Below are positions 6,436-40,487 of a stretch of DNA of 40,487 nucleotides, piece by piece. How positions within the stretch are numbered: position 1 is the stretch's first letter; each line of letters begins with the position of its first letter. The stretch is from a virus, in IMG/VR virus record IMGVR_UViG_3300035199_000136, positions 1-40,487 of that record; one strand, 5' to 3'. The notes beneath the pieces were generated by a model, which did no database searches, was not told where the DNA came from, and saw only the letters and a program-made list of their open reading frames with translations. A program made the translations under genes and the position numbers.

Positions 6436-6749
6436 CCGACTGCACTTGCAAGACTTGCAGCGACTATAACGACAGCCAATCTTATGGGACAGCCGATAGG
6501 TTAGCTAAATGTAACCCTGCCCCTCTCTATCACAAGAATTATCTACCAGTTTTCTGTGACAAAGTAGATGTTTTTTACGTCAAAACCAGCAACAAATATG
6601 GTGGGATGAGAGTTTGTAGTGTTAAGTCTAAAAGCTATAACAGTCTTAGAAAGCACAGAAAGAAGGTTCCTCACTACCGAAGGAATAAAAAACTCACTTT
6701 CCTTGAAAGGCTGTTAAGACGCAAAGAATTTTCAAGGAGAACACAATGA
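6432..6749 (+). CDS. hypothetical protein with a Cys-rich N-terminus and a basic C-terminus (105 aa)
   Basis: ATGA overlap coupling on both sides. Confidence 0.75.
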   Translation: MTDCTCKTCSDYNDSQSYGTADRLAKCNPAPLYHKNYLPVFCDKVDVFYVKTSNKYGGMRVCSVKSKSYNSLRKHRKKVPHYRRNKKLTFLERLLRRKEFSRRTQ

Positions 6750-7033
6750 CCGAGTTTAACGGCAGCGATTATCAATCAGAGCGAGACAGGCCAAGGCTCA
6801 CCAGTCAGCACGAGCGAGTATTCGAGGTGATGAAAGACTCGTTCCCTCGCACCCTGGGACAGATAGCATCTTCAACCGGCGATCCTGAATCATCTATCTC
6901 AGCGCAGCTTAGACACATGCGTAAGCCACGCTTCGGCGGTCACACCGTCGTGAAGGAACACGTAGGAAGCGGGCTGTACACGTACAGGCTCATACAGAGG
7001 ATGCCAGACAAGCAGCTAGCAATGGAGTTATAG
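6746..7033 (+). CDS. winged-helix DNA-binding protein candidate (95 aa)
   Basis: RTLGQIASSTGDPESSISAQLRHMRK...GSGLYTYRL resembles an HTH plus wing. Confidence 0.5.
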   Translation: MTEFNGSDYQSERDRPRLTSQHERVFEVMKDSFPRTLGQIASSTGDPESSISAQLRHMRKPRFGGHTVVKEHVGSGLYTYRLIQRMPDKQLAMEL

Positions 7034-7035
7034 GC

Positions 7036-7605
7036 ATGGAACCCTATTACCAAGACGATGCTGTGACCATCTACAACGCTGACTGCCGTGACGTACTACC
7101 AACGCTAGGCACGGTTGACCTTGTGCTGACCGACCCGCCATATCCGACAGCCCACCTTGAATACGGGAATGTCGGATTAGATGAAGTCGCAGCATTAGAG
7201 ATTCCGCAAGTGTGGTTCTGGGCAGGGAACACACAATTCCCTTACGACCACACATCTGTCAGTGTGTGGGATAAGCAGGTAGGCGTGGCAAAGTTTGAAT
7301 TGATTTACTCCCTCAACTGGAAGGGTATTCATGACATATTCAAACGCTACTTCATAAATTCAACGGTCGCTGCTAACTTCACAGGTGATGACTTCAATGA
7401 ACACCCCTCACAGAAACCGATTCGCCTTATGCGTGACGTTCTGTTGCGGTGTCCTGAAGGCACAATCCTCGACCCGTTTATGGGTAGCGGTACGACCCTG
7501 CGAGCAGCGAAGGATTTGAACCGCAAGGCTATCGGGATAGAGATTGAAGAACGTTACTGTGAGATTGCCGCCCAGCGTATGAGCCAACTGGTGATGGAAC
7601 TATGA
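7036..7605 (+). CDS. DNA N6-adenine/N4-cytosine methyltransferase, beta class (MT1, 189 aa)
   Basis: Motif IV is TDPPY. Also HPSQKP and motif I DPFMGSGTT, in the order IV then I. Confidence 0.8.
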   Translation: MEPYYQDDAVTIYNADCRDVLPTLGTVDLVLTDPPYPTAHLEYGNVGLDEVAALEIPQVWFWAGNTQFPYDHTSVSVWDKQVGVAKFELIYSLNWKGIHDIFKRYFINSTVAANFTGDDFNEHPSQKPIRLMRDVLLRCPEGTILDPFMGSGTTLRAAKDLNRKAIGIEIEERYCEIAAQRMSQLVMEL

Positions 7606-8150
7606 TTCCCTGCGCCCCATGCCTGCACCTGACCGACGAGATGAGCGAGGATGACCGATTCGACTATGCGAGCGTTCACACTGGTGACAAGCAGTGCGAT
7701 ACATGCCCGTTCAGGTGGGACTGGATGCCACTGATAGGACTGTCTTATGACAGGGCAACACTGGCTAATGCGCGAATGTTATGGTTGTCTTTTCAGTCAT
7801 TGTTTCCAAAAGCTGGCGAACGACCGTGCCTCACTATGCCTGATGACCCAGAGCCTCAATGGTGGCCTGTCAACACCGTCAGAATAAAACGTGTTGCCGC
7901 AGGTCTGACACTGTTTGAGCGGGTCAAGTCAGCAGTAGCCGTAGAGGACATAGCTGAACGGTTGACCGAGTTACGTGGGAACAGTGTCCTGAAAGGTAAG
8001 TGCCCACTCCACAACGAACAGAACGGGGAAGCCTTTGCTGTTTATAAAGATACCCAGACATGGCGATGCTTTGGGAGTTGTAATGTCGGTGGTGACGTCA
8101 TCGCCCTGATTCAAGAATGTATGGAAAGAGATATCGAATGGCAGAAGTAA
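7602..8150 (+). CDS. stand-alone DnaG-type CHC2 zinc-finger protein (primase Zn-binding domain only)
   Basis: CPLHNEQNGEAFAVYKDTQTWRCFGSCNVGGDVIALI matches the zf-CHC2 pattern. I saw no TOPRIM or RNA-polymerase domain. Confidence 0.7.
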   Translation: MIPCAPCLHLTDEMSEDDRFDYASVHTGDKQCDTCPFRWDWMPLIGLSYDRATLANARMLWLSFQSLFPKAGERPCLTMPDDPEPQWWPVNTVRIKRVAAGLTLFERVKSAVAVEDIAERLTELRGNSVLKGKCPLHNEQNGEAFAVYKDTQTWRCFGSCNVGGDVIALIQECMERDIEWQK

Positions 8151-8773
8151 TACAGCCCTACTACCAAGATGAATCAGTCACGATTTATAACGCTGATTGC
8201 CGTGATGTTTTGCCTATGCTGGGTAAGGTTGATCTTGTGCTGACTGATCCACCGTATGGGATTGCTAGTGTTTGGAAGGGCGGTGGCGGGCATGGTTGGG
8301 GCAAGTCTAAAAATCAGGGGGTGTTGCGTAATAAATGGGACTCTGCTACCCCGTCCAATGAACTAATTATGGATTGCATTGCGCTTGGAAAAAACGCTAT
8401 TGTTTGGGGTGGTAACTATTACTCGTTGCCTGTATCTCGCGGGTGGCTGATATGGAATAAACCGGAAAGAGGTTTCACTTTGGCAGAAGCGGAACTTGCA
8501 TGGACTAACCGAGATAATGTTATGCGGGTGTATGACGCTAACCGCTCAGATATTGGAAGGGAACACCCCACCCAAAAACCAATAAGCCTTATGAAGTGGT
8601 GTATAGGTTTCTTCCCCGACGCACAACACATTCTTGACCCGTTTATGGGCAGCGGTACGACACTTCGAGCAGCCAAAGATTTGAACCGTAAGGCAATAGG
8701 TATTGAGATAGAGGAACGGTACTGCGAGATAGCAGCGAAGCGTATGAGTCAGTTAGTTATGGAGTTAAAGTAA
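8138..8773 (+). CDS. DNA N6-adenine/N4-cytosine methyltransferase, beta class (MT2, paralogue of MT1)
   Basis: TDPPY, HPTQKP and DPFMGSGTT motifs. Its N- and C-termini are near-identical to MT1 at the protein level while the central region differs. Start taken at ATG 8138 (alternative 8117). Confidence 0.85.
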   Translation: MAEVIQPYYQDESVTIYNADCRDVLPMLGKVDLVLTDPPYGIASVWKGGGGHGWGKSKNQGVLRNKWDSATPSNELIMDCIALGKNAIVWGGNYYSLPVSRGWLIWNKPERGFTLAEAELAWTNRDNVMRVYDANRSDIGREHPTQKPISLMKWCIGFFPDAQHILDPFMGSGTTLRAAKDLNRKAIGIEIEERYCEIAAKRMSQLVMELK

Positions 8774-10441: not shown

Positions 10442-11008
10442 ATGAAAGTAATCGTCGCATGTGAGTTCAGCGGAATAGTCAGGGATGCCTTTACAGAAGC
10501 AGGCCATGATGCTGTTTCCTGCGACCTGCTACCAACCGAAAGCCCAGGGAAACACATACAGGATGACATTCGCAATGTTGACCTGAGTAAGTACGACCTG
10601 ATGGTAGCGCACCCACCCTGCACCCACCTGGCAGTTAGTGGTGCGAGGTGGTTCCCCGAAAAAAGAAAAGAGCAGCAAGAGGCTCTGGAGTTTGTTCAGT
10701 GGCTACTGGACGCTCCCGTACCTCGTATCGCTTTAGAGAATCCGGTCAGCATTATCAGCAGTCGTATCCGAAAGCCCGATCAGATCATCCAGCCCTGGCA
10801 ATTTGGACATGGCGAAACAAAAGCAATCTGTTTGTGGCTTAAAAATTTATGGCCTTTAGTTTCAACTGAATTATCAGAAGGTCGTGAGGCAAGAGTACAT
10901 CTCATGCCGCCTTCACCGGACCGCTGGAAGGAACGCAGCAAATTCTATACAGGCATAGCAAAGGCTATGGCAACACAATGGGGGGCAGAATGGTTCAACT
11001 ACAACTAG
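10442..11008 (+). CDS. short C5-cytosine methyltransferase-like protein (188 aa)
   Basis: Motif I-like VACEFSG, motif IV AHPPC and motif VI ALENP. Too short to hold a TRD or motifs IX-X. Confidence 0.5.
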   Translation: MKVIVACEFSGIVRDAFTEAGHDAVSCDLLPTESPGKHIQDDIRNVDLSKYDLMVAHPPCTHLAVSGARWFPEKRKEQQEALEFVQWLLDAPVPRIALENPVSIISSRIRKPDQIIQPWQFGHGETKAICLWLKNLWPLVSTELSEGREARVHLMPPSPDRWKERSKFYTGIAKAMATQWGAEWFNYN

Positions 11009-11487: not shown

Positions 11488-11546
11488 ATGGGCAGCAAGG
11501 AGAATCGGTTGCCGCCCATGAAATAAGAAACCGCTAGGGTTTTTTG
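11488..11546. terminator. Tandem hairpins where + and - transcription units converge (candidate bidirectional terminator)
   Basis: 11488-11519: stem atgggcagcaa/ttgccgcccat with 10 of 11 positions paired. 11525-11545: A/T-rich stem aagaaacc/ggtttttt. Confidence 0.4.
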
Positions 11547-11707
11547 CCGTCCTTCTTTTTACAGTTGCAGTTTTCAGTCTTAGCCTTCAGTTCTGCATTT
11601 TCACGATTCAATGCTTTCATCTGAAGTTCAAGCCCTGCAATGACAAGCACCTTGTCGCCAATCATCGACTGCATATCTTCATTTATCTGCGATACATCCG
11701 TTGCCAT
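11534..11707 (-). CDS. small coiled-coil protein with a Cys/Lys-rich C-terminus (57 aa)
   Basis: MATDVSQINEDMQSMIGDKVLVIAGLELQMKALNRENAELKAKTENCNCKKKDGKKP. SD gaagaggtag upstream. Not in the ORF track. Confidence 0.5.
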   Translation of the reverse strand: MATDVSQINEDMQSMIGDKVLVIAGLELQMKALNRENAELKAKTENCNCKKKDGKKP

Positions 11708-11904: not shown

Positions 11905-12192
11905 TTATTTCTTCTGGGACTTGCGGGGTGCAGTCCTCTTGATTAGGCCAAGATGCTTGCTGCCACCAAGCCTTGTCCATTCGGCACTGGTCATCTTGCC
12001 ATCGCCCTGGCTGATCGCATTTATAGCAAAGTTCGCCACTCGCTCCTGTTCTTCTGGCGTGTCCAGATGCATGAAGAGTGACTCAGCAAGTTTGTAAACC
12101 TTCAGTTGGGTCTTCGACTTATCGATGTAATTCTTTGCATCCTTTGTGGCTGATAGTGCCACAGGTAAAAACGAACCTAGTATCTTAAACAT
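11905..12192 (-). CDS. hypothetical protein (95 aa) with a hydrophobic N-terminus
   Basis: ORF with MFKILGSFLPVALSAT at the N-terminus. Divergent from the YqaA-like gene. Confidence 0.55.
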   Translation of the reverse strand: MFKILGSFLPVALSATKDAKNYIDKSKTQLKVYKLAESLFMHLDTPEEQERVANFAINAISQGDGKMTSAEWTRLGGSKHLGLIKRTAPRKSQKK

Positions 12193-12243: not shown

Positions 12244-12807
12244 TTGGATAAATCGAACTACCGACATCACTGGCTGGCCCAGCATCAGAAATTCTTACGC
12301 GTTACTCCGCTACTTATAAGCGTAGCCTTCATAGCAACAGGTCTTGTTCTCTGGACCACCGGAACATTCAACATTGAAACTGTTGGGTACGCCAGTATCT
12401 GGTTCATCGCCTTCATAGGTGCTGCTCTTATTTTCCTGCCGGTTTCTGCTCTGGCAACCGTCTGCGTGGCAGTGGCCGTTGATCTGAACCCCTTTATAGT
12501 TGCTGTCGTTGCTGCGTCTGCCGAATCCATAGGTGAACTGACAGGCTATCTTGCTGGCATGGGTGGCAAGTCCTTCTTTGAACACAACCGCTTCTACCTG
12601 CGGTTCAAGAACCTCTTCGAGAAATACTCATTCCTCTGTTTACTCATTGGCAGTGCCATCCCGAACCCACTCTTCGATGTCCTTGGAATAGCTGCTGGCA
12701 GCGTACTCTATCCTGTCAAAAGATTTATTCTGCTGGTCTTCATCGGCAAGGTGGTCAAGTTCAGCTGGATAGGACTAGGCTGCTATTACGGGATGACCTG
12801 GTTCTAA
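12244..12807 (+). CDS. YqaA/DedA-family (VTT-domain) multi-pass membrane protein
   Basis: ASAESIGELTGYLAG and KYSFLCLLIGSAIPNPLFDVLGIAAG...FIGKVVKF align by eye with E. coli YqaA (ATMGNSLGGLTN; RYGAVTLLLSWMPVVGDLLCLLAG...LGKALRY). TTG start. Confidence 0.6.
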   Translation: MDKSNYRHHWLAQHQKFLRVTPLLISVAFIATGLVLWTTGTFNIETVGYASIWFIAFIGAALIFLPVSALATVCVAVAVDLNPFIVAVVAASAESIGELTGYLAGMGGKSFFEHNRFYLRFKNLFEKYSFLCLLIGSAIPNPLFDVLGIAAGSVLYPVKRFILLVFIGKVVKFSWIGLGCYYGMTWF

Positions 12808-12899
12808 TATTGAACACGTTCCAAGTGCCCTCTATATAACCTTCTGGCTGTATAAGCTGCAAGGATGGCGACCAGTGTAAAAGTAAATAAGCGTTTCAT
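12804..12899 (-). CDS. possible 31-aa single-TM peptide translationally coupled to tatC (MKRLFTFTLVAILAAYTARRLYRGHLERVQY)
   Basis: ATGA overlap with the tatC stop. Hydrophobic core followed by a basic tail. Very short. Confidence 0.3.
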   Translation of the reverse strand: MKRLFTFTLVAILAAYTARRLYRGHLERVQY

Positions 12900-13771
12900 C
12901 GTTTCCTAATCTTCCTGTATATCCAGCGGACCTTTACTACAGGGTAGCCTATACCAAACCGTATCTTTCGCAAAACCCAGCCTATTCCAGCCCTGATCTT
13001 CTTGACGAACATGTAGTCGCCCTGTTCAGGCCATGCCACCCACGACAGGAATAAACCCACCTCGTAAAGCATGATGATCGGGACAGCGAGGAGCGTCTGA
13101 TTTACGATGTCGAACGTGGGGGTAATAATGGCTGAGAGGATAAATGCTGATACCGGAACGTACTTCCGCAGTCCACGTAAGCGCAGGTACGAGACTATCC
13201 GCATCTTGGCTAACAGATACATCGTGATAGGCAGTTCAAATACGACGCCCAGCCAGAAGACCATTGCTGAGAGTAAGTCAATGTATTCTGAGAGGACTAT
13301 TACTGGTGTGGCAACGCCTGTACCGAAGTTAAGAAGGAACTTCAGTCCAGTTGGGAGCATTATGAAATATGCAAATGAAGCCCCCAGTAAAAAGGACAGG
13401 ACGGTTGCTGGAAAAAAGATAACCAGGAACCGCCGTTGCTGAGGAGGAACCAGCGAACTAAATAACGTATAGACACTGACCACTATGACAGGGAGTGCGG
13501 CGATAACTCCCCCTCTGATGGCAAGCTGGATAGTTGCCCCCATCATCGACGTAGGCGAGGTAAATATGGGAAGGTTGCCCTCGAAAGGCGAGAGGTTATC
13601 CCCCGCTGGAGCAAGCAAGAACCCGAAAACCGCCTCACGAAAATACCACGTAGCACCCGCACCGGCTCCGAAAGTAAGAAGAATCCAGAACAGTCGTATT
13701 CTTATACGTCGGCCTAACACGCGTGACGCATGACGGCCTACTTCGCCTATGCCCCTATAAGGAGCGAGCAA
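12896..13771 (-). CDS. tatC: TatC, the twin-arginine translocase core subunit homologue, with a cationic repeat tail
   Basis: PPQQRRFLVIFFPATVLSFLLGASFAYFIMLP and VVFELPITMYLL...AIITPTFDIVNQTLLAVPIIMLYEVGLFLS align with E. coli TatC (HERRLVVPLL...GMAFAYFVVFP; VSFEVPVAIVLL...[29 protein letters not shown]). TTG start. Confidence 0.85.
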   Translation of the reverse strand: MLAPYRGIGEVGRHASRVLGRRIRIRLFWILLTFGAGAGATWYFREAVFGFLLAPAGDNLSPFEGNLPIFTSPTSMMGATIQLAIRGGVIAALPVIVVSVYTLFSSLVPPQQRRFLVIFFPATVLSFLLGASFAYFIMLPTGLKFLLNFGTGVATPVIVLSEYIDLLSAMVFWLGVVFELPITMYLLAKMRIVSYLRLRGLRKYVPVSAFILSAIITPTFDIVNQTLLAVPIIMLYEVGLFLSWVAWPEQGDYMFVKKIRAGIGWVLRKIRFGIGYPVVKVRWIYRKIRKR

Positions 13772-13894
13772 TTAAGTTTCTTTCTTGCTCTTCTTGGATT
13801 GCCCTCGTCGTAAAGCTGTCGCCATCCAGCCACCACCACCAAGCAATACCACAGTTCCCATAGCCACGATGCCTACTAAGACCCATTCGTTCAT
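13772..13894 (-). CDS. 40-aa single-TM protein (MNEWVLVGIVAMGTVVLLGGGGWMATALRRGQSKKSKKET)
   Basis: SD aaggat upstream. Its stop abuts the tatC start. Not in the ORF track. Confidence 0.5.
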   Translation of the reverse strand: MNEWVLVGIVAMGTVVLLGGGGWMATALRRGQSKKSKKET

Positions 13895-13896
13895 TT

Positions 13897-14175
13897 TTAA
13901 CTATCCTTACTTTGCGTTATCGTTTGCTCATCATTAGCGAGAGCATCTAACTTATTCTTTGCAACTAAGTTACTCAGTCGCAACCGTCTTACTTGCTTTG
14001 TGACGTCACGCATACCAGCCTTTGCCGTGACTGCTGCCCAGGTGTTCACGAACACGATCCCACGAGCAGCACTGGTAGCTGAATCAACTGCACCGCCAAC
14101 CAAAAAGTCGAAAAGTTTCACAACGACGAAACTCGCCGCCATTGACCCTAGTGTATAGCCCAGCAACCAGCCCAT
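13897..14175 (-). CDS. two-TM small membrane protein (holin-like topology), 92 aa
   Basis: Two hydrophobic segments followed by a charged C-terminus. TAATG overlap with the upstream gene. Confidence 0.45.
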   Translation of the reverse strand: MGWLLGYTLGSMAASFVVVKLFDFLVGGAVDSATSAARGIVFVNTWAAVTAKAGMRDVTKQVRRLRLSNLVAKNKLDALANDEQTITQSKDS

Positions 14176-14528
14176 TATTCATCCTTCTTCTTCTTTGGTC
14201 CCTCAAGAGATTCCAGAAGTCCATCAACCACCGCCAATCCTTGAGATATGTAAGATGATAACATGGCTTGCGCTGGTCGTATGCCTGCGGCTTTCGCTCG
14301 ATCTTTGAGTTCAGTAAGCGATTCAACAAGTTCAGTAGGGCTTATCGGCTTAATCTCATCCTCGACGGTCAGCACCGGCTCCTCTTCAACGATCACCTCG
14401 TTTTCTACTGGAGCCTCTTCTTCTACGGCTACTCCCACGGTTGCTTCTGCAACCTCTTTTACAGCACCAGCATCTTCGACGTCTGGTTTCTCTGCTGCCT
14501 GCTCTGGTTTAAAGTCCTGAATTTCCAT
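14175..14528 (-). CDS. highly acidic hypothetical protein (117 aa)
   Basis: E/V-rich N-terminal half and an amphipathic C-terminus ending in KKKKDE. Confidence 0.7.
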   Translation of the reverse strand: MEIQDFKPEQAAEKPDVEDAGAVKEVAEATVGVAVEEEAPVENEVIVEEEPVLTVEDEIKPISPTELVESLTELKDRAKAAGIRPAQAMLSSYISQGLAVVDGLLESLEGPKKKKDE

Positions 14529-14539
14529 ATTCCCCTTCT

Positions 14540-14659
14540 TTAGTATTTCCTTTTACGCCTGGTGTTAGTCATCTTCCTGCCAGTACGCTTGGCTGCCTTC
14601 TTTGCAGCGGCCTTGCCCTTGGCTGTATATGGATAATGCCGACGTCCTACTTTGGGCAT
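14540..14659 (-). CDS. hyper-basic 39-aa protein (MPKVGRRHYPYTAKGKAAAKKAAKRTGRKMTNTRRKRKY)
   Basis: SD ggag upstream (aaaccggagtaagtt ATG). Not in the ORF track. Confidence 0.5.
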   Translation of the reverse strand: MPKVGRRHYPYTAKGKAAAKKAAKRTGRKMTNTRRKRKY

Positions 14660-14662
14660 AAC

Positions 14663-15016
14663 TTACTCCGGTTTAGTGAACTTGTCTTTCGTAGCCTTGA
14701 CTGCCTTGTACCAACTGCCTGTCTTGCCTAGCTTGCCATTCGTTATATCGTGGAACAGCATGTCCAACTGGTCGGGGATGCTTGGGTAACTACCGTCAAC
14801 TTGAGAGTCAGTCCTGAAGCTGGCGTAGTCTGCTGACTGCCCACCGTTTGCTTTAAGTTCGTTACGAACATCTCTTGCAGCACTAGCCGTTGCCCACTGG
14901 TCTATCGTGGCATTGAACTCAGATGAACTTAGTGTTTCACTGACACCGTTTACTACCCTCGTCAGCGACGAGTGCTTTGCTTTTAGAGCCGTAACATGCT
15001 CTGCCTTAGTTGCCAT
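14663..15016 (-). CDS. hypothetical late protein (117 aa)
   Basis: TAATG coupling to the upstream gene. Confidence 0.75.
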   Translation of the reverse strand: MATKAEHVTALKAKHSSLTRVVNGVSETLSSSEFNATIDQWATASAARDVRNELKANGGQSADYASFRTDSQVDGSYPSIPDQLDMLFHDITNGKLGKTGSWYKAVKATKDKFTKPE

Positions 15017-15564
15017 TAACCTACTCCGTACATCTTGATTGTGCCAGCGTCTATGTTACCGCTGCTCATCTTAAATTGAACCCTTGTGATAGCAGTCGTG
15101 ATGTTGATGTAGCCAGATACAAATGTCTGCACTGATGTGTCGCCACCTTGATAACAGTTAGAAGTAGAAATAAAGTGCTTCACGTATGCACTTGATGGGT
15201 CATATAGCGTCAGAATCCCAGAAGTAGACTGATCGGCTTCTCCAGCCCCCACATCCTTTGCCAGCGTTTGAAAGACACCGTTGGTGTCGCCAGCGGTTGC
15301 TTGGTCATCACCAGTGGAATAAGCCACCGTAGGCGACCCGCCAGATTCATCGTTATGCGCCTGAAAATAAGTGGTTATCATGGGGTGGTCGTAGTCGGAA
15401 TCACTCCCTGTTTCTACCTGAAACTGAAACTCAGTATTGTCAGTCGCTGGGTGAATCCCTACGTAGTGAAACTCATATACCGGGTACGTGTCGTCAATCC
15501 CAGAGGTAAACCCAAGGGTGGCACTGGTAGATGCGGTATCCGTGTCGATTAGTGTTAAAGCCAT
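15016..15564 (-). CDS. virion/tail-fibre-associated protein, paralogue B (182 aa)
   Basis: Shares SGIDxTY...NTxFQFQV...YVKH...GYINxTTAIxxxxFKMxSGNxDxGxIKMYG with the upstream gene. Confidence 0.6.
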   Translation of the reverse strand: MALTLIDTDTASTSATLGFTSGIDDTYPVYEFHYVGIHPATDNTEFQFQVETGSDSDYDHPMITTYFQAHNDESGGSPTVAYSTGDDQATAGDTNGVFQTLAKDVGAGEADQSTSGILTLYDPSSAYVKHFISTSNCYQGGDTSVQTFVSGYINITTAITRVQFKMSSGNIDAGTIKMYGVG

Positions 15565-16226
15565 TATTTCGCTATCCCGTACATTTTGATTACTCCATCT
15601 AAGTTGCCACTAGCCATCTTAAAACGAATGTCATCTATGGCAGTGGTGTCGTTTATGTACCCTGCCACCCAAGTATTATATGCAGCGTTCTGCTGTGCAT
15701 TTTCAGAAAACTGTGCCATCCAATGTTTTACATAAGTCCCGCTGGATGGGGCAAACAGCCACATCCTGCCCGAAATGGATTCATCTGCACCGTTGCCGAC
15801 ATAATGCTCAAGAGGTATAAAACTTGTTGATTGCTTGGCATCCCTGCTTGCATCATAATACAGGCTTGTGCCTGTTCCCTCCGAAGGCTCATCCTGATAC
15901 GCAGCAAAATGGGTACTCGTAATGGCAGAGTCGTTGTAATCAGCACCATCAGTCGCATTGACCTGAAACTGGAACTGCGTGTTATCAGTCGCAGCGTTGA
16001 GGTTGATGAAGTCGAAAATGAACACGTCATAGGTCGAGTCGATACCCGAACTAATATCAATGCTAGTAGCGTTTGATGCAGTAGATGTAGATATCAGCGT
16101 ATGAGCCTCAGTTACGCCAGCGAACTCAAGGCCACTTATCTTCTCTATATTATCGTCAGTTCTACCTATAATTTTTTCGATATCAGCAATCGCAATGCCG
16201 CTTACTTTTTCTACTGCGTTAGCCAT
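15564..16226 (-). CDS. virion/tail-fibre-associated protein, paralogue A (220 aa)
   Basis: Same motif set as paralogue B, plus a 40-aa N-terminal extension with (V/I)EK(V/I)SG repeats. Confidence 0.6.
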   Translation of the reverse strand: MANAVEKVSGIAIADIEKIIGRTDDNIEKISGLEFAGVTEAHTLISTSTASNATSIDISSGIDSTYDVFIFDFINLNAATDNTQFQFQVNATDGADYNDSAITSTHFAAYQDEPSEGTGTSLYYDASRDAKQSTSFIPLEHYVGNGADESISGRMWLFAPSSGTYVKHWMAQFSENAQQNAAYNTWVAGYINDTTAIDDIRFKMASGNLDGVIKMYGIAK

Positions 16227-26611: not shown

Positions 26612-29600
26612 CTACTGACCGCCAAGTTGTCGCCCAACCCAGGTAGGCTTAGTTGGCTCTGTTGTTGGGATTACATTATCAGCGGCAGCAGGAGCCATAG
26701 TTGCAGGAGTAGAGTGTGCCTCTCTCGCTTTCTGAGATTGAAGAATGCGTTTAGCAGTAGTTGAACCTTTAAGTAGTTCCATAATGCCGGGTGCGTGAAC
26801 TCCTTGGTTCGTGTTACGCATCACGTATTCTTTCTGCTCTTTAGGAAGGCTTACAAGCAACTTGGTTACGAGCTTATTCCACACATCAGGCATGAAGAAA
26901 TCACCAACAATAGCGCTGTCAAAAGTAAGGTTATACGCCTCTAATGCGTCAATATTGGCATCTGTTTCTTCTTCTTTATTCTCGTCAAAATCCATGCGTG
27001 CGCCTGCTGCTAGTCCGACTTTCTGGTTACGAGCGTTTGACTGCGCTTCGTAGTACAAGTCCAATGCGTTACGCCGTGGATCCTTTGGGAACCTCTTATT
27101 GGTAACTATTCCAGCAAGTGGCCCTCTACCAGCAAGACCGTCGATAATGTTCTTTTCCTGACGCAGCCTGGTGTCATCAATTTTCTTAGCTTCTGAGTAG
27201 TACGTTGAAACTTTATCCCCGCCTGCTGCACGTTCTTCGGTGATTGGATCAAGCATCGCAGCTTGACTCCTGCGAGTTTCCCTTTTCTGGTAAGGCTCAG
27301 TATCTTGATACTTCATGCCCCATGTCAGATCAGAAGCGTTATTCAAGTAGTCAAATGCGCCAGCGGGAAAACTGCGCCCACCGACGAAATCAGATATACC
27401 ACGAGCAGCCTTGCCTTGCAATGTGTCATTTGGCCCACCACTAAAGAATGCTGCATTAGCAGTCAGCGGAATGAAGTTCCCGGTAATGATATTTGCCACC
27501 AAGCCCCAGCCTTCACCCATTGGATTACCACCGACATCCTTGCCAAGCAGTAAGTTTATTGGAAGACCTGGAGCAAACGCTAATTGACCACGAATCCAGT
27601 TTACGAAGTTATTACTGCCAAACTCCTTAGTTTCCATGAACCCTTCAGGATCGTTCGCCGCCTTTGCAAGCAAACGCATGTCAGACAATATCTTTGACCC
27701 AGGCCCAACAAGCTGCCCTGCAACTTCCCACAACAAGTATCGAGGGTGAAGGGGGTTTAGTCGTTCCTTAACTCCTTGCCTTATCTTTTGCGGAGAGTCA
27801 CCATCTTCAACCCCCTTAAGAATAGTAATCCCTGCGCCAAGCATCATCATGCCAGTAATCATTTTGAACATTGACTTACGTGCCAAGTCGCCCTTGATCC
27901 CGCCCTGCAACATTGATGAATAGAAAGCAGCCGTGGCTCGACGGTACTGCGATGCAAGCAATATGGCAGATTCTCTTGTTCTGGTTGCTTGGTTTACACC
28001 GATACGAGATGAAGACATTAGCCCTCGTGTATTGTTGATGTAATCATCTATATCTTTCAAAGCCGCAGTATCAAAAGTTCCGTCTGCATTTTTAGCAAGG
28101 CTTTCCAGCCCTTCTGCCATGCTTAATCCAGCCTCGTCAAACGCTGCTTCTGTTGCAATGCGGAACGGTTCAAGTAAGCGTCTTGGGAATGCTTTGGCTC
28201 GTTGCGCTGCGCCTCTAACTGAGAGTGCTTCATTCCATAAATCAGTTGCACCTAGCACACCTTCAGGGTTGAAAGCCTCAGTAAATTCACCGCCACCCAA
28301 CTTCAACGTGCTGTGACGATTTGCCAACTCGCGCGAACGCTGAATACGTGCAGCATTAGATTTAGTGGCTAACTCTGGGCTGACTATTCCTTTTGCAAGT
28401 CCGTCTGCAAAAGCAGCAAGTGCCTTAAGGTAAGCCTTCTTGTGACCAAATGCGGCAATTATCAACTGAATAGTTGCGATAGATGCGTCACCAGCCAGGG
28501 AGAAGTACCTGCTCACACTGTTTGTCTTGGCTACACCAGAAGTCACTGAGCCTACTTCAGTCTTGGCTTGGTTCTTCAATGCTTCTTTTAGGTCAGATGC
28601 TATCTGTTGACCTTCTCTGCCACGAATAAGAATGTTGTGATTCTGGAAGGGAAGTTTTGTTGCATCTTCAAATGTAGACCCTGCTGGAACTGTCTCGAAG
28701 TTTTCCTTTACATACTTCACAAGTGCATCTTCTGCATTTGCATTATAGGCAGCACGTAGTTGGTCACGAACCCGCTGGTCATACGGAACAACGGTATAAC
28801 CGCCCTCCGTTACCTCTTTCATTGTTTCTATGTCACGGGCTTTGCTTGCCGTGCCACCAATATTGCGCCTGGTAGTACCAGCATCTGGTATCTCACGAAT
28901 GGCTATTATGTCGCCAGCCTCGTTGTACTTTGCAGCAATGCCACGGCTGAAGAACAACAGGTTTTCTGTTTCGCTAATTTTTCCAACATCAGCCCCCGCG
29001 CGAACTCTTAGTTCACGCGCTGCGTTACTGAGTTGACGAAGACGGTCAACATACTCTCGCTGTTCAGGGTTCAACTGACGCAAAATCGCAGGGAGTTCTG
29101 CATCGTTCAGTGTCTTCCCTTTCAGGACACCAGCAGTGTCATCTGTAAACCGCCCAAACTCGTCAAGTTTCCCAAACAGTCCTTCTCGTGTCCCTAACTC
29201 GTTTACATAAGACATTGCTCGTTCAACTAAGTTTCGCCCCTCGTCTTTCAACGGATTCAAAATATGACCAAGTCGCTGCCCAATTCGTTGAGCCTTAAGT
29301 GAAGGGTCAGCCTTTCCTAATCGAAGGAACTCACCGACCTTGCGAGGAGTAAATTTGGGCAGGGTAATGTTCTTGCCAATAATAGGTATCCTGAATCCAA
29401 ACGAACCTTCACGGAAAGTAATATCTAACTGCTCGCCAAAATCCGTTAGGTCAGGCAGACCGCCAGGCAGAGGAGAAACCCGCACATCAGCAGGGGCGGG
29501 TGGAACAGTTGGTGGAGGTGTCGTGGCGGCATCAGCCTGCCTTGCAGCAGTAACTGGAATTTCACCCGCCGGTCTACCAGTACCCACGTCATCTATGATC

Positions 29601-32020
29601 GCCTGCTGCTCTGGTGTCAGCCGCCCTCCTGCTGCTAAAACCCTGCGAGCCTCATCAAGTTCAGCCGCCCTAGCAGCAGCCAACGGATCAGTTGGAGCAA
29701 CTCGTTGAACCGGCGTTACCTCTTCAGCCACTTCCCTAGGAGCAGCGTCAGCTTGCCTAGCAGCAACGGGTGGTAGTTGTCCAGCATCTATTGTTGCGGT
29801 ATCTACCAACTCGCGTTTAGTAATATCGTCTATGCGAGATACAAGCCGGTCCTTGATTGCTGCATTTGCACGAATCCACCGAGAGTAAATCTCCTGAAGT
29901 TCGCCTACCTGCCTACCCATATGTTGCAACATGCCTTCAACTTGTGAGAGCGTCAGATGCTCAATGTTTTCTGTAGTGCCAGCCAAGAAATCAATCGTCA
30001 TTCTCTGGGCGGTATTTTCGTCCACAACACCTAATAATTTCTGGGTAAGTTCTTTTTGGTCGGCATTGACCAGCCTCAGTTCTGTTTCAAATAACTCTTT
30101 CCGCTGAAAATCAGGGACTTGTGCGGTTAGTTCGTCAATCTGCTTAAACGCTTCGTCGGGCGATATGAACCCCGGCATTTCAGTCAACCGCTCAAACTCA
30201 TTCCGTACACTTTGTAATTCAGTGTCAGAAAGTGAGCGAAGTTCTCCCCCAGCCCCCCTAGCAGCAACGTCAGCTTGCCTAGCTGGAGTGGTTGGCTGGC
30301 GAACGCCACTGATATCTACGTCGCCGTGAACTTGGATTTCGTTCAAAAAGTCGCCCGATACACGGTCAGTAATGAGCGGAGCATCGGGTAACGTGCGAGA
30401 TGGAACGGCGATTACTTCAACGGATTCAGGCGTTATAAGTCGTGCCTGTGCATCGTCCATAAGTATGATGGGGTCTTGGCGTAAGCCCGGAATTGGCTCC
30501 CCGCCTGTAAACTGCCCTCTTCGGACTGTTTCCCTGCGTGTCAGATAGGCTCGATAGACTTCTACTCGTGACAGGTTTCCTCTTGTGCGCCAGTCTGCTC
30601 CATATATCTTAGAAACTATTTCATCAGCTTCCCCGATTGCTTCAGCAGTTACACCTGCACGTTGAGCGTCTTCGGAGATTATCCGGTTCATAATTACGAT
30701 AGCTTCATCGTCGCTTCCTGCGCGGGCGACTTCACCTATTCTTATGAGTTCTGTGGCTATATCGTCTGCGTCGGTAGCACTAGACGTAAAACTCACAGTC
30801 TCGTTTGCTTGAGTACCACCCAGCCCGCCACCCTCGCCGGTACTGGCACGCAATACGTTACTGTTTCGCACTCGTTGAGAATCTGACGTAACGTGGAAGA
30901 CTGTCTCAGGAAGGTCTTGCTTTGTTCTTATTCGCCCTCTGATAACTCTTCCCTCGTGAAATCTAAAAGGACCTTCCCCCGCTCCCGCTATAGAGATTGA
31001 CGATTCACGACCTTTTGCTGCGTCTTCTGCACTAATGAACACCCTCAATGGACCTTTATCTATATCTTCGGGAATAAAGCGTCCTTGAGTACGCAGTTGC
31101 GGCACAGGATCAAGCACGTTGCCTACGCCAGTGCGACCGATTGCTGCTGCGGCTTGTTCTCCCTTTCGCAAGGCTGCACCAGCACCAGCCTTTGTTCCGC
31201 TTACAGCAGCACGGGCAGGCGCAGTGACAAGTTGTGGAGTACCAACCACAGGAAGGACGTTCAGTGGGTCTAGTAAAGCCGCACCTAGTTCAGCACGATT
31301 AAGATCCCAAAGCCCCTCGCCTGTCACGGGATCACGCTCACCCTGAAGGATTCGCCCCAGCCCCTCAATTGGATTAGATGCTCCTGCGGGGCTTCCCAAT
31401 ATGGTCATATCACTGGCTGCGGGAAGAGACTCCCTGAAAGCGCGAGGGATTGAAGATATTGCCCGCTCAAACGGATTTGTCGCAGCAGCCTGTTCTGCGG
31501 CTAATTTTTCTGCAAATGCACGGTCAAAGGGAGTCTCACGTACAGGTAGCACTTGTCGTGCCATCGCTCCCACCCCGCCACCAAAATCAAAAACAGGAGC
31601 AAGGTCTTCAAGCATCTCAAGGTGTGCGCGTCCAAACGCACCCATGCCTATACCTACTTGTTTTGCAACAGGTCCGATACCGCGCCCTATTGTCTGTCCT
31701 ATGATATTTGTACTTCTCGGAGGAACCGGACGCTGGACATCTACAGACTGTGTGGGCTGCGCTGTCTGAGGTTGCCTGAATCCACCCTGCTCAAAATCTT
31801 GAAAAACCCGTGTAGGCTGCGCTATCTGTGTAGGCTGCGCTACTTGCGGAATTGGTCGGGTCGCATTGAACTCTTGCTCGCTTTGAGCGATGAACTCGGT
31901 GAACTTCTGCGGAGCGGTGGGATCGTCACGCTTCAGACGATATGCGTTCCCTGTTAGATTACGGGCAACGCTGTCAATCTGGTCAAAAAAGTCGTTCCCA
32001 GGAAAAGGAGGCTGTGTCAT
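26612..32020 (-). CDS. giant virion-internal/ejection (tape-measure-like) protein, 1802 aa
   Basis: Uninterrupted ORF between portal and scaffold. Internal AARQADAA and AQPTQ repeats. Hydrophobic helices in the C-terminal half (e.g. MFKMITGMMMLGAGITIL). Confidence 0.5.
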   Translation of the reverse strand: MTQPPFPGNDFFDQIDSVARNLTGNAYRLKRDDPTAPQKFTEFIAQSEQEFNATRPIPQVAQPTQIAQPTRVFQDFEQGGFRQPQTAQPTQSVDVQRPVPPRSTNIIGQTIGRGIGPVAKQVGIGMGAFGRAHLEMLEDLAPVFDFGGGVGAMARQVLPVRETPFDRAFAEKLAAEQAAATNPFERAISSIPRAFRESLPAASDMTILGSPAGASNPIEGLGRILQGERDPVTGEGLWDLNRAELGAALLDPLNVLPVVGTPQLVTAPARAAVSGTKAGAGAALRKGEQAAAAIGRTGVGNVLDPVPQLRTQGRFIPEDIDKGPLRVFISAEDAAKGRESSISIAGAGEGPFRFHEGRVIRGRIRTKQDLPETVFHVTSDSQRVRNSNVLRASTGEGGGLGGTQANETVSFTSSATDADDIATELIRIGEVARAGSDDEAIVIMNRIISEDAQRAGVTAEAIGEADEIVSKIYGADWRTRGNLSRVEVYRAYLTRRETVRRGQFTGGEPIPGLRQDPIILMDDAQARLITPESVEVIAVPSRTLPDAPLITDRVSGDFLNEIQVHGDVDISGVRQPTTPARQADVAARGAGGELRSLSDTELQSVRNEFERLTEMPGFISPDEAFKQIDELTAQVPDFQRKELFETELRLVNADQKELTQKLLGVVDENTAQRMTIDFLAGTTENIEHLTLSQVEGMLQHMGRQVGELQEIYSRWIRANAAIKDRLVSRIDDITKRELVDTATIDAGQLPPVAARQADAAPREVAEEVTPVQRVAPTDPLAAARAAELDEARRVLAAGGRLTPEQQAIIDDVGTGRPAGEIPVTAARQADAATTPPPTVPPAPADVRVSPLPGGLPDLTDFGEQLDITFREGSFGFRIPIIGKNITLPKFTPRKVGEFLRLGKADPSLKAQRIGQRLGHILNPLKDEGRNLVERAMSYVNELGTREGLFGKLDEFGRFTDDTAGVLKGKTLNDAELPAILRQLNPEQREYVDRLRQLSNAARELRVRAGADVGKISETENLLFFSRGIAAKYNEAGDIIAIREIPDAGTTRRNIGGTASKARDIETMKEVTEGGYTVVPYDQRVRDQLRAAYNANAEDALVKYVKENFETVPAGSTFEDATKLPFQNHNILIRGREGQQIASDLKEALKNQAKTEVGSVTSGVAKTNSVSRYFSLAGDASIATIQLIIAAFGHKKAYLKALAAFADGLAKGIVSPELATKSNAARIQRSRELANRHSTLKLGGGEFTEAFNPEGVLGATDLWNEALSVRGAAQRAKAFPRRLLEPFRIATEAAFDEAGLSMAEGLESLAKNADGTFDTAALKDIDDYINNTRGLMSSSRIGVNQATRTRESAILLASQYRRATAAFYSSMLQGGIKGDLARKSMFKMITGMMMLGAGITILKGVEDGDSPQKIRQGVKERLNPLHPRYLLWEVAGQLVGPGSKILSDMRLLAKAANDPEGFMETKEFGSNNFVNWIRGQLAFAPGLPINLLLGKDVGGNPMGEGWGLVANIITGNFIPLTANAAFFSGGPNDTLQGKAARGISDFVGGRSFPAGAFDYLNNASDLTWGMKYQDTEPYQKRETRRSQAAMLDPITEERAAGGDKVSTYYSEAKKIDDTRLRQEKNIIDGLAGRGPLAGIVTNKRFPKDPRRNALDLYYEAQSNARNQKVGLAAGARMDFDENKEEETDANIDALEAYNLTFDSAIVGDFFMPDVWNKLVTKLLVSLPKEQKEYVMRNTNQGVHAPGIMELLKGSTTAKRILQSQKAREAHSTPATMAPAAADNVIPTTEPTKPTWVGRQLGGQ

Positions 32021-39618: not shown

Positions 39619-40386
39619 ATGATCACAACCGATGTTAAACAGCATCGTGCGAACATACGACAGGCACGTCGCGAGTTAGGCCAACTATTCGAGTATTCCA
39701 CTGTCGTAGTTTGGGAAGGCCCATCTCCCATCAACGGCGCGCCGATAGTCGCTGTTATCACTAACCTTAAAAACGGTTCGGAAAATGGCAAAACCGATGA
39801 TATGGCCCAATTATATATTTTGCCGCGAGATACTCGGCCAGTCGACGCTGTAGACAACGGCCAGGATGCCGCGGTTTGTGGAGCTTGTCCACTACGGCCG
39901 ATAGCAGCGAAGATAGCCAGGCTACAGGGAAACATCGTTGATGCTTGCTACGTCAATAAAGGTTGGATCGGCCCATTATGGGATTCCATTCCCACATTAC
40001 CGAGAGTACATCCCGAAATTATTGGCGATTTTCTAGAATCTACAGGTTTGGAATTCCGGGAAGGTACATGGGGCGATCCGGCCATGGTTCCGATGTGGGT
40101 CAGACGTGAACTTAACCGCGGCCGCGGCACGTCATACACTCACCAATGGGCCACTGATTGGATTGACCCGGATGTTAAAGATTTCAGCATGGCCAGCGTG
40201 CAATCTATCGACGAGAAAAACGCGGCTAACGAACTAGGATTCCGAACGTACCGCATAACATCCGGGAACCTGGAGCCTGATGAAATCCTATGCCCTGAAA
40301 TCACTAGCAATGCGACATGCAAGGCATGTGGTTTATGCTCCGGTAATAGGGTCCAGGCGAAAAACATCGTCATCCGGCCTATCTAG
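39619..40386 (+). CDS. hypothetical early protein with Cys clusters (255 aa)
   Basis: SD gagaga upstream. Contains CGAC...C and CPEITSNATCKACGLC. The ORF ends inside the terminal repeat. Confidence 0.8.
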   Translation: MITTDVKQHRANIRQARRELGQLFEYSTVVVWEGPSPINGAPIVAVITNLKNGSENGKTDDMAQLYILPRDTRPVDAVDNGQDAAVCGACPLRPIAAKIARLQGNIVDACYVNKGWIGPLWDSIPTLPRVHPEIIGDFLESTGLEFREGTWGDPAMVPMWVRRELNRGRGTSYTHQWATDWIDPDVKDFSMASVQSIDEKNAANELGFRTYRITSGNLEPDEILCPEITSNATCKACGLCSGNRVQAKNIVIRPI

Positions 40387-40487
40387 ATTAGATTGTCTAG
40401 GCAGTAGACATAAGCCAGGTAACGCGCTTATGTCTATCCCTAGGTTATCTAAACCTAACAAACAAACTAGCAGAGAGAGAGAGAGAG
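40361..40487. repeat. Terminal direct repeat, copy B (identical to 1..127)
   Basis: Exact 127-bp identity with the start of the window. Confidence 0.95.

Follow-up and report, generated by a model that had tools for sequence, protein, structure and literature searches.

Replacement of the twin-arginine recognition residues in a TatC-like protein encoded at the end of a marine phage late operon

A late-operon cassette around a TatC-like gene

We analysed the IMG/VR virus record IMGVR_UViG_3300035199_000136 over its full length of 40,487 nucleotides (nt; hereafter referred to as the window), with a focus on a cassette of five genes that includes a homologue of TatC, a core component of the twin-arginine (RR) translocation system Tat. 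The first and last 127 nt of the window are identical (positions 1-127 = 40361-40487), which shows that it spans an entire phage genome, either circular or terminally redundant, whose unique sequence amounts to 40,360 bp. Genes were recognised for TerS, TerL, a capsid protein, fibre-like proteins, a DnaB-like helicase, a primase zinc finger, RusA and three methyltransferases. Early and replication genes lie on the + strand up to ~12.8 kb and late structural genes on the - strand (11.5-37.5 kb), and the guanine-cytosine (GC) content is ~50% and uniform across the cassette region. The phage is a member of a tailed, very prevalent and uncultured marine group. A protein identical to the TatC-like protein of the window (P0022) was present on 102 metagenomic contigs, and one identical to its small neighbour, protein B, on 265 contigs (Tara, Station ALOHA-type, JGI and 'LUOE20' samples, and the NCBI record MN693976.1 of 40,564 nt). 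Of the 103 index blocks for P0022, 73 contain contigs between 20 and 50 kb long, and the four contigs inspected measure 40-43 kb; IMG/VR viral contigs share the same synteny around the TatC-like gene. In transcriptional order, the cassette genes, with lengths in amino acids (aa), are as follows.

14175..14528, - strand: protein A, 117 aa, net charge -17, isoelectric point (pI) 4.2; first gene of the cassette
13897..14175, - strand: protein B, 92 aa, starting with MGWLLG; its start overlaps the stop of A (TAATG)
13772..13894, - strand: protein C, 40 aa; E3 ahead of ~15 hydrophobic residues, then GGGG and a basic tail
12896..13771, - strand: TatC-like protein, 291 aa, TTG start; TatC fold with six transmembrane (TM) helices
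12804..12899, - strand: protein D, 31 aa, single-TM peptide MKRLFTFTLVAILAAYTARRLYRGHLERVQY; overlaps the tatC stop by ATGA

The five genes (A-B-C-TatC-like-D) are translationally coupled and close the late operon. The stop of B is followed after 2 nt by the ATG of C, and the TAA of C directly abuts the TTG of the TatC-like gene. An earlier annotation, made from the letters of the window alone (the first-pass annotation), had placed tatC at the distal end of the late operon in coupling with small membrane proteins, with the stop of the 40-aa gene against the tatC start and an ATGA overlap with the 31-aa peptide, and all of this was borne out by the junctions and by synteny in relatives. The TAATG overlap that it described is real, but joins the 117-aa protein A to the 92-aa protein B rather than B to tatC. 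The 92-aa product is indeed a small membrane protein, but its description as a two-TM protein is uncertain given one strong and one weak hydrophobic segment. A survey of tatC neighbours in phage and virome data revealed that the A-B-C-TatC order recurs in relatives down to ~40% TatC identity, often with a further small membrane open reading frame (ORF) behind it, always after tail-fibre genes and always as the last unit of the late operon. The ratio of nonsynonymous to synonymous substitution rates (dN/dS) ranged from 0.06 to 0.34 across the five cassette genes and a convergent VTT-domain gene described below, which indicates purifying selection, the 40-aa ORF included.

Protein A is soluble, with an acidic, disordered N-terminal half and a conserved C-terminal helix that ends in G-KKKK (dN/dS 0.16-0.34). 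By position and C-terminal motif, orthologues were recognised in the related loci L001-3, L014, L015, L019, L024, L026, L108, L110 and L111; acidity is usual among them, though not universal (net charge +1 in L014 and 0 in L110), and no Pfam, PHROG or PADLOC match was obtained for A. Protein B combines a strong TM helix at its N-terminus with a weaker hydrophobic segment rich in Ala, Gly and Thr and with a basic helix at its C-terminus, and belongs to a family of 73-92 aa with invariant W3, F22, D23, R38, W46 and M55 (dN/dS 0.11-0.14). Protein D is conserved in L001, L006 and L114, and other relatives carry a different small membrane ORF at this place (L018, L026). In L018, this is a 72-aa ORF with two TM segments that overlaps the tatC stop (6705-6923, + strand). 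In L019, the TatC-like gene is followed on the same strand by a gene for a 207-aa predicted lipoprotein (6893-7516, + strand; LAVATVSC) that has a coiled-coil-like C-terminal part and is spanin-like.

Protein C has a predicted N-out/C-in topology, and its family spans 30-63 aa (dN/dS 0.06-0.12). In the alignment, an acidic residue (E/D) stands ahead of the TM helix in 11 of 11 orthologues, most of which continue with 14-15 hydrophobic residues, a glycine run and a basic tail. This arrangement recalls the design of TatA and TatB in its place upstream of tatC, its acidic residue, a short helix (~15 residues in protein C), a glycine hinge and a basic segment, and a small single-TM gene directly upstream of the TatC-like gene likewise recalls cellular tatA/tatB operons. 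In contrast to TatA and TatB, protein C has no amphipathic helix of TatA length, and its TM helix is 14-15 residues long rather than 12. When 3,483 ORFs from phage loci were searched with a hidden Markov model (HMM) of the N-terminal part of Chloroflexota TatA/B, the best match was the protein C orthologue of L014, MFGMGPQELLIIVG (E-value (E) = 0.036), which starts with MFGMGPQELLII and carries an FGxGPxELLII motif like Chloroflexota TatA/B; protein C of the window itself scored E = 8.7. Neither B nor C matched the Pfam family TatA_B_E (PF02416) at E <= 1.

The cassette occupies the position in which lysis genes would be expected, as the first-pass annotation had remarked, and we found no recognisable lysis cassette elsewhere in the genome. 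Pfam searches of all 50 ORFs gave no muralytic family (lysozyme, amidase, peptidase or transglycosylase), holin or spanin, and the PHROG matches listed for the same ORFs included no endolysin, holin or spanin; that list excludes 28 low-ranking families, all of them on twelve ORFs with known family assignments. A lipobox was not found on any plausible gene, the single pattern match being a 48-aa ORF on the non-coding strand. In a scan for hydrophobic segments, the only membrane proteins on coding strands were those of the cassette and the VTT-domain protein, which makes the cassette the sole source of late membrane proteins. The statement that no phage protein has an RR signal was confirmed by a scan of all ORFs, and no cassette protein matched a PADLOC defence model.

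Recognition residues, scaffold and origin of the TatC-like protein

The TatC identity of the 291-aa product, proposed earlier from a by-eye alignment with Escherichia coli TatC over TM4-TM6, was upheld by profile, sequence and structure comparisons, and the alignment itself was reproduced computationally. The protein matched Pfam PF00902 with 148 bits (cut-off 25.1; E = 4.3e-43) over profile positions 6-208 of 208, and phmmer against the PDB found Aquifex TatC (4B4A, E = 1e-31). Its AlphaFold2 model was of good confidence by both the predicted local distance difference test (pLDDT 88.4) and the predicted TM-score (pTM 0.78), and the top seven PDB matches in Foldseek were all TatC and nothing else (E ~1e-9), with a target-normalised TM-score of 0.75 against 4b4a, 9e01 and 9dzz and a range of 0.71-0.75 over the top six. 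Unlike canonical TatCs, the protein scored below the cut-off of the NCBIfam equivalog TIGR00945 (125.5 versus 132.7 bits).

Cryo-EM of TatBC with a bound substrate, published in 2026, showed that H12, E15, F94, Y100 and E103 of TatC bind the two arginines and the consensus phenylalanine of the signal, and E103A in E. coli TatC served there as a binding-negative, transport-inactive control (PMC13323110). In random mutagenesis, F94S and E103G/K inactivated TatC (PMC3712464). To place these positions in the phage protein, we searched 1.84 billion cluster representatives with HMMER, which retrieved 8,352 TatC-like relatives, and aligned the best 150 (representatives of 50%-identity clusters) with Salmonella TatC, which shares the E. 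coli numbering over the residues compared. The canonical group (n = 77) was defined by acidic residues at E15 and E103. At the five positions the window has V18, R22, L103, P109 and Q112, respectively, and the two groups compare as follows.

H12: His in 76 of 77 canonical proteins; various residues in phage-type proteins; V in the window
E15: E or D in all canonical proteins, by group definition; mostly R or K in phage-type proteins; R in the window
F94: F or Y in 77 of 77 canonical proteins; mostly L in phage-type proteins; L in the window
Y100: T, Y or other in canonical proteins; mostly P, T or S in phage-type proteins; P in the window
E103: E in all canonical proteins, by group definition; Q, Y, F, L, R, W and others in phage-type proteins; Q in the window
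C-terminal tail: median 12 aa in canonical proteins; 40-90 aa in phage-type proteins

Almost all of the 39 closest representatives were phage-type, the exceptions that keep E15 being P0155 (canonical) and P0156 (intermediate). Altogether, phage-type proteins made up ~40 of the best 150 representatives, and the family includes hundreds of 90% clusters.

Other parts of the protein are retained. Like canonical TatCs, especially those of Dehalococcoidia and SAR202, it has the six-TM glove fold and equivalents of P48, Y126, E170, T208, D211, Q215 and E227; among these, E179, T217, D221 and Q225 of the window correspond to E170, T208, D211 and Q215, that is, to the intramembrane glutamate and the residues on which TatA and TatB dock. 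Across the phage clade, the equivalents of P48, Y126, D211 and E227 are kept and T208 is T or S. The periplasmic loop LLAPAxGxLSP is also kept, and LLAPAxGxLS occurs in Chloroflexota TatCs as well. Beyond the five recognition positions, the phage protein is unlike canonical TatC in its termini. The N-terminal cytoplasmic segment carries a net charge of +6 (neutral in canonical TatC), and the phage-type tail contains a conserved AWLAxPExGNYLW-K motif followed by a basic end rich in W and R. In the window, this C-terminal extension (residues 247-291) is basic and amphipathic (net charge +11; hydrophobic moment 0.5-0.58), and an additional helix is predicted at residues 253-274 (pLDDT ~85). Constraint on the whole gene is strong, with dN/dS of 0.11-0.15. 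On the evidence of these alignments, the signal-recognition site of TatC has been lost in the phage protein. Because the RR-site residues are replaced while the fold, the loop and the docking residues persist, the protein keeps the scaffold and the partner-docking features of TatC, but not its cargo sensor.

In a neighbour-joining tree (no bootstrap), the phage-type proteins were monophyletic and sister to a group dominated by Chloroflexota. A pattern-limited scan of 185,579 species genomes returned 564 cellular TatC relatives, and the best 80 of these were almost all from Chloroflexota (Dehalococcoidia, SAR202 and Anaerolineae; 31-44% identity), with cellular TatCs overall being 31-46% identical to the protein of the window. 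The fourteen TatCs inspected from the Chloroflexota scan were canonical, with H12, E15, F94 and E103 intact and short tails, and most inspected cellular tatCs had a TatA/B-like gene close by, which stood just upstream in 14 of the first 16 loci listed. P0155, which ranks highest among the canonical representatives in the unbiased HMMER search, is 46% identical to the protein of the window, adjoins a PF02416 gene and clusters with a Dehalococcoidia TatC from Lake Baikal. Given that the phage clade is monophyletic and only 31-46% identical to cellular TatCs, it is best read from its sequences as an old, neofunctionalised lineage and not as a recent host capture. The combination of high host similarity and retained binding residues that would mark an auxiliary metabolic gene was not found for the TatC-like gene.

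Two short-tailed proteins, P0146 (on L112) and P0156 (on L111), have an apparently intermediate form. P0156 keeps E15 and F94 and has L at E103, and in P0146 the residues at E15 and E103 are G and Q, respectively. Small genes resembling A, B and C lie upstream of P0156; of these, only one like C can be made out on the short L112 contig. The two proteins may reflect stages in the change from canonical to phage-type TatC. As single-protein queries for more divergent viral loci, P0166 and P0173 found nothing.

The affinity of the TatC-like protein hints at a Chloroflexota host, and we put the chances of a SAR202/Dehalococcoidia host at about even. A GC content of ~50% is compatible with SAR202, and SAR11 genomes have low GC. 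SAR11, which the similarity of the fibre-like proteins would suggest, was considered as a host and judged unlikely because of the GC content of the genome and the Chloroflexota affinity of its TatC. Genes for peptidoglycan synthesis are reportedly missing from SAR202 genomes (PMC6306507). In L033, a fragment of a SAR202 genome, a canonical tatC is immediately preceded by a TatA/B-like gene, and thus Tat components would be available for co-option in these bacteria.

Possible roles of the cassette

The cassette has both likenesses to and differences from known lysis systems. Like class II holins and pinholins that follow tail-fibre genes, as in T7, it is terminal in the late operon and consists of coupled small membrane proteins, and protein B resembles holins in size, hydrophobic segments and a highly charged C-terminus. 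In contrast to such cassettes, it comes without a recognised endolysin or spanin, has no holin-family match (Pfam, PHROG matches listed) and contains a six-TM translocase homologue; we know of no described lysis cassette with such a component. Two properties of the Tat system itself are relevant here. A polar residue before the short TM helix of TatA and TatB hydrogen-bonds to TatC and drives TatA assembly, and the membrane weakening caused by TatA-type proteins has been likened mechanistically to the action of holins (PMC9527704).

Given these features, the explanation that we favour, with a probability of roughly 0.4, is that the cassette is a Tat-derived, signal-independent egress module that permeabilises the membrane, possibly in a host without peptidoglycan. 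The TatC-like protein would oligomerise in the host membrane and nucleate short-helix partners, which could be phage protein C, protein B and/or host TatA and TatB. Because the protein would no longer be gated by an RR signal peptide, its assembly would be timed by late-gene dosage instead of by cargo; and because assembly would no longer be signal-gated, the transient membrane weakening normal to Tat would turn into a scheduled, lethal and irreversible permeabilisation at the end of infection. The module would then be equivalent to a holin, and could suffice alone where the host lacks peptidoglycan, as reported for SAR202. A more elaborate form of this proposal sees in the cassette a new class of egress system, with a TatC platform deprived of its cargo sensor, C as a TatA/B-like protein, B as a holin-like protein and A as an acidic regulator or ligand, which together lead to programmed rupture; this version is possible, though we hold it to be doubtful.

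Several points weigh against a permeabilising egress module. The assignment to lysis draws on position, elimination and architecture, and permeabilisation itself is inferred from these. An endolysin too diverged to be recognised could exist, as many ORFs are unannotated, including one for a protein of 1802 aa. A TatC scaffold would also be an elaborate device if a simple holin, perhaps protein B, would do. The partners are less well defined than the TatC-like protein. The AlphaFold2 model of protein B is of low confidence (pLDDT 57; helices 3-27, 35-53 and 58-90), and hhalign gave no alignment of B or C with TatA/B, with reverse HMM searches also negative. For these reasons, and with a best forward match of E = 0.036, the reading of protein C as a degenerate TatA/B is suggestive only. 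Among the docking features, the position of E170 is E or Q in the wider phage clade, although E/Q variation also occurs among canonical TatCs, and Q215 is kept in the sub-clade of the window but varies in distant members. With respect to the host, the fibre-like proteins resemble those of Pelagibacter podophages (44-49%), in conflict with a Chloroflexota host, and the ancient origin of a gene in Chloroflexota does not fix the present host.

One alternative is a private Tat-like translocon with altered specificity, which would export a folded, non-RR phage protein late in infection with C (with or without B) in the role of TatA/B. Protein A is a candidate for the cargo, as would be a virion-associated factor or one that degrades the envelope or S-layer. 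The preserved TatC fold and partner-docking residues agree with this idea, as do the dedicated, co-conserved small partners, among them a usually acidic, soluble A coupled to B, and the basic cytoplasmic face formed by the N-terminus (+6) and the tail (+11) could bind an acidic ligand, the opposite of the acidic patch that binds RR. However, we identified no potential cargo that carries a conserved targeting motif, and the Pfam scan showed no secreted enzyme encoded in the genome. A new specificity would also predict a re-fixed consensus, whereas the recognition positions vary (Q, Y, F, L, R or W at E103). The notion of protein A as a charge-swapped ligand is weakened by its non-acidic forms in L014 and L110. 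We therefore regard a private translocon as unlikely.

The first-pass annotation had offered, as its second option, a phage that poisons or blocks Tat, in which the TatC-like protein co-assembles with or titrates host TatB, TatA or TatC and stops Tat export, and such a decoy could serve superinfection exclusion, the removal of receptors or the avoidance of progeny loss on debris. Loss of the cargo site together with retention of the periplasmic cap and the TM5/6 docking residues is the pattern that a dominant-negative subunit would show, and the LLAPAxGxLS loop is common to the closest cellular relatives. A decoy would, however, need neither three to four co-conserved partners nor a conserved new C-terminal helix. 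Its place in the late operon would be odd, as exclusion genes are usually early or constitutive; no PADLOC model matched; and the gain from blocking Tat minutes before lysis is not obvious. On these grounds, we rate a Tat poison as quite unlikely, a step below the private translocon.

The main proposal of the first-pass annotation, that the phage supplies a working Tat core which boosts host export of RR substrates such as amidases, fared worse. As an auxiliary gene, a functional phage TatC could raise the export of amidases, phosphatases or respiratory enzymes, and the strong TatC homology, the purifying selection, the known occurrence of host-derived auxiliary genes in phages and a DedA-superfamily gene nearby would all be in keeping with it. 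In E. coli, DedA mutants impair the export of Tat-dependent amidases. Against it, all five RR-recognition residues are replaced, and E103A alone abolishes binding and transport. The equivalog score falls short, the clade is old, monophyletic and far from cellular TatCs, in most cassette-bearing lineages no VTT gene was seen downstream of tatC, and the late operon holds phage-specific partners with no canonical tatA (PF02416 absent). An amidase substrate would also seem to fit poorly if the host is a peptidoglycan-less member of the Chloroflexota. Because the binding site is ablated, the divergence old and the partners phage-specific, we consider a boost of host export improbable. Finally, a misassembled host fragment inside a phage contig, for which nothing speaks but the a priori oddity of a phage-borne tatC, can be dismissed with near certainty, because the genome closes on itself over 127 nt and the same gene order, with identical TatC and protein B, is repeated on many independent assemblies, IMG/VR viral contigs among them, and because GC does not shift across the region; the chimeric insert that the first-pass annotation had been wary of is thereby ruled out.

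Remaining genome features and significance

The gene that converges on the cassette from the other strand, and the other features of the genome outside it, are listed below.

12244..12807, + strand: VTT/YqaA-like membrane protein of the DedA superfamily, 187 aa, TTG start; convergent with the cassette
2532-2605, + strand: tRNA-His (GTG) in the early region; partly overlapped by a mechanical ORF at 2578-2904
7036-7605, 8117-8773 and 10442-11008, + strand: three DNA methyltransferases, two of N6_N4_Mtase type and one phrog_757
11534-11707 and 11905-12192, - strand: ORFs of 57 aa and 95 aa between RusA and the VTT gene, on the late strand
14540-14659, - strand: 39-aa ORF with 16 Lys/Arg and zero acidic residues, pI 11.9; directly upstream of protein A
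15016-15564 and 15564-16226, - strand: tandem fibre-like paralogues (phrog_14820), 44-49% identical to pelagiphage hypothetical proteins
26612-32020, - strand: ORF of 1802 aa within the structural operon; unmatched in Pfam and PHROGs

For the VTT-domain protein, the proposed YqaA/DedA homology was substantiated by a match to VTT_dom (PF09335) above the gathering score (42 bits, cut-off 33.9; E = 1.6e-10; residues 66-173), by four hydrophobic segments and by the JGI name of a 92%-identical protein ('membrane protein YqaA with SNARE-associated domain'). It differs from the DedA/VTT superfamily at large in being phage-encoded, in having no NCBIfam model match, in its restriction to one sub-lineage and in its convergent position on the early strand. 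Among 647 homologues, the top 120 were phage-clade proteins with 76-92% identity, and dN/dS was 0.09-0.13. The gene was present in L001, L006-9 and L114-L123, and only in the sub-lineage with at least ~79% TatC identity; within ~3.5 kb downstream of tatC, it was not seen in L002, L003, L014, L015 or L017-L019. Because it closes the early/replication strand, in the transcription unit opposite to the cassette, and is confined to one sub-lineage, the VTT gene is a lineage-specific accessory neighbour and not a core partner of the cassette. As a guess, it may act in membrane or proton-motive-force homeostasis during infection.

Several of the other features showed differences among relatives. The 57-aa and 95-aa ORFs are absent from the close relative L001, where RusA adjoins the VTT gene; the 95-aa product has a hydrophobic N-terminus and no family match. 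The basic 39-aa ORF upstream of protein A is called as a gene in 8 of the 10 close relatives shown. Counterparts of the fibre-like paralogues occur in three copies each in the Pelagibacter podophages HTVC010P, HTVC019P and HTVC034P, and the relative L110 also has three. The 1802-aa ORF could hide enzymatic domains, muralytic ones included. No DNA polymerase family was found among the Pfam matches of the whole proteome.

We also looked for relatives among cultured phages. A blastn search of the region against 50,697 phage records gave no match, and the portal-sized ORF likewise had no match. The tblastn matches of TatC in INPHARED were canonical TatCs on entries that, although labelled as phage, look like pieces of bacterial chromosomes or whole-genome contigs; one of these records, L011 (MT837203.1, 'Bacteriophage sp.'), also carries genes that by eye resemble NrdD/NrdG and a CCA-adding enzyme.

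The presence of TatC homologues in viral genomes is already known from automated PF00902 tags in marine viral genomes and from PHROG 36238, a family of 'unknown function' that matches residues 71-242 of the TatC-like protein (E = 1.9e-18). TatC (PF00902) is annotated, for example, in a figure legend for a marine circular virus genome (Rahlff et al. 2023 Nat Commun; PMC10564846). Full-text literature searches returned no study of the residues, partners or function of phage-encoded TatC, and none of SAR202 phages that carry TatC. What is new here is a distinct viral TatC-like clade with, as its sequences indicate, an erased signal-recognition site, a fixed set of partners, and a lysis position in genomes without recognisable lysis genes.

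For annotation, these findings imply that such genes, when labelled 'TatC', could be mis-scored as auxiliary metabolic genes. For studies of the translocase, the phage proteins offer a natural separation-of-function variant for probing the roles of TatC beyond signal binding, and, if the egress module is real, the family would be a case in which nature has separated the role of Tat as a receptor from its capacity to destabilise membranes. The clade may also provide a first handle on phages of SAR202/Dehalococcoidia, and if the proposed mechanism is correct and the hosts are peptidoglycan-less SAR202 Chloroflexota, no endolysin would be needed. A cassette that stands in place of recognisable lysis genes in such a prevalent marine group points to an undescribed route of cell exit.

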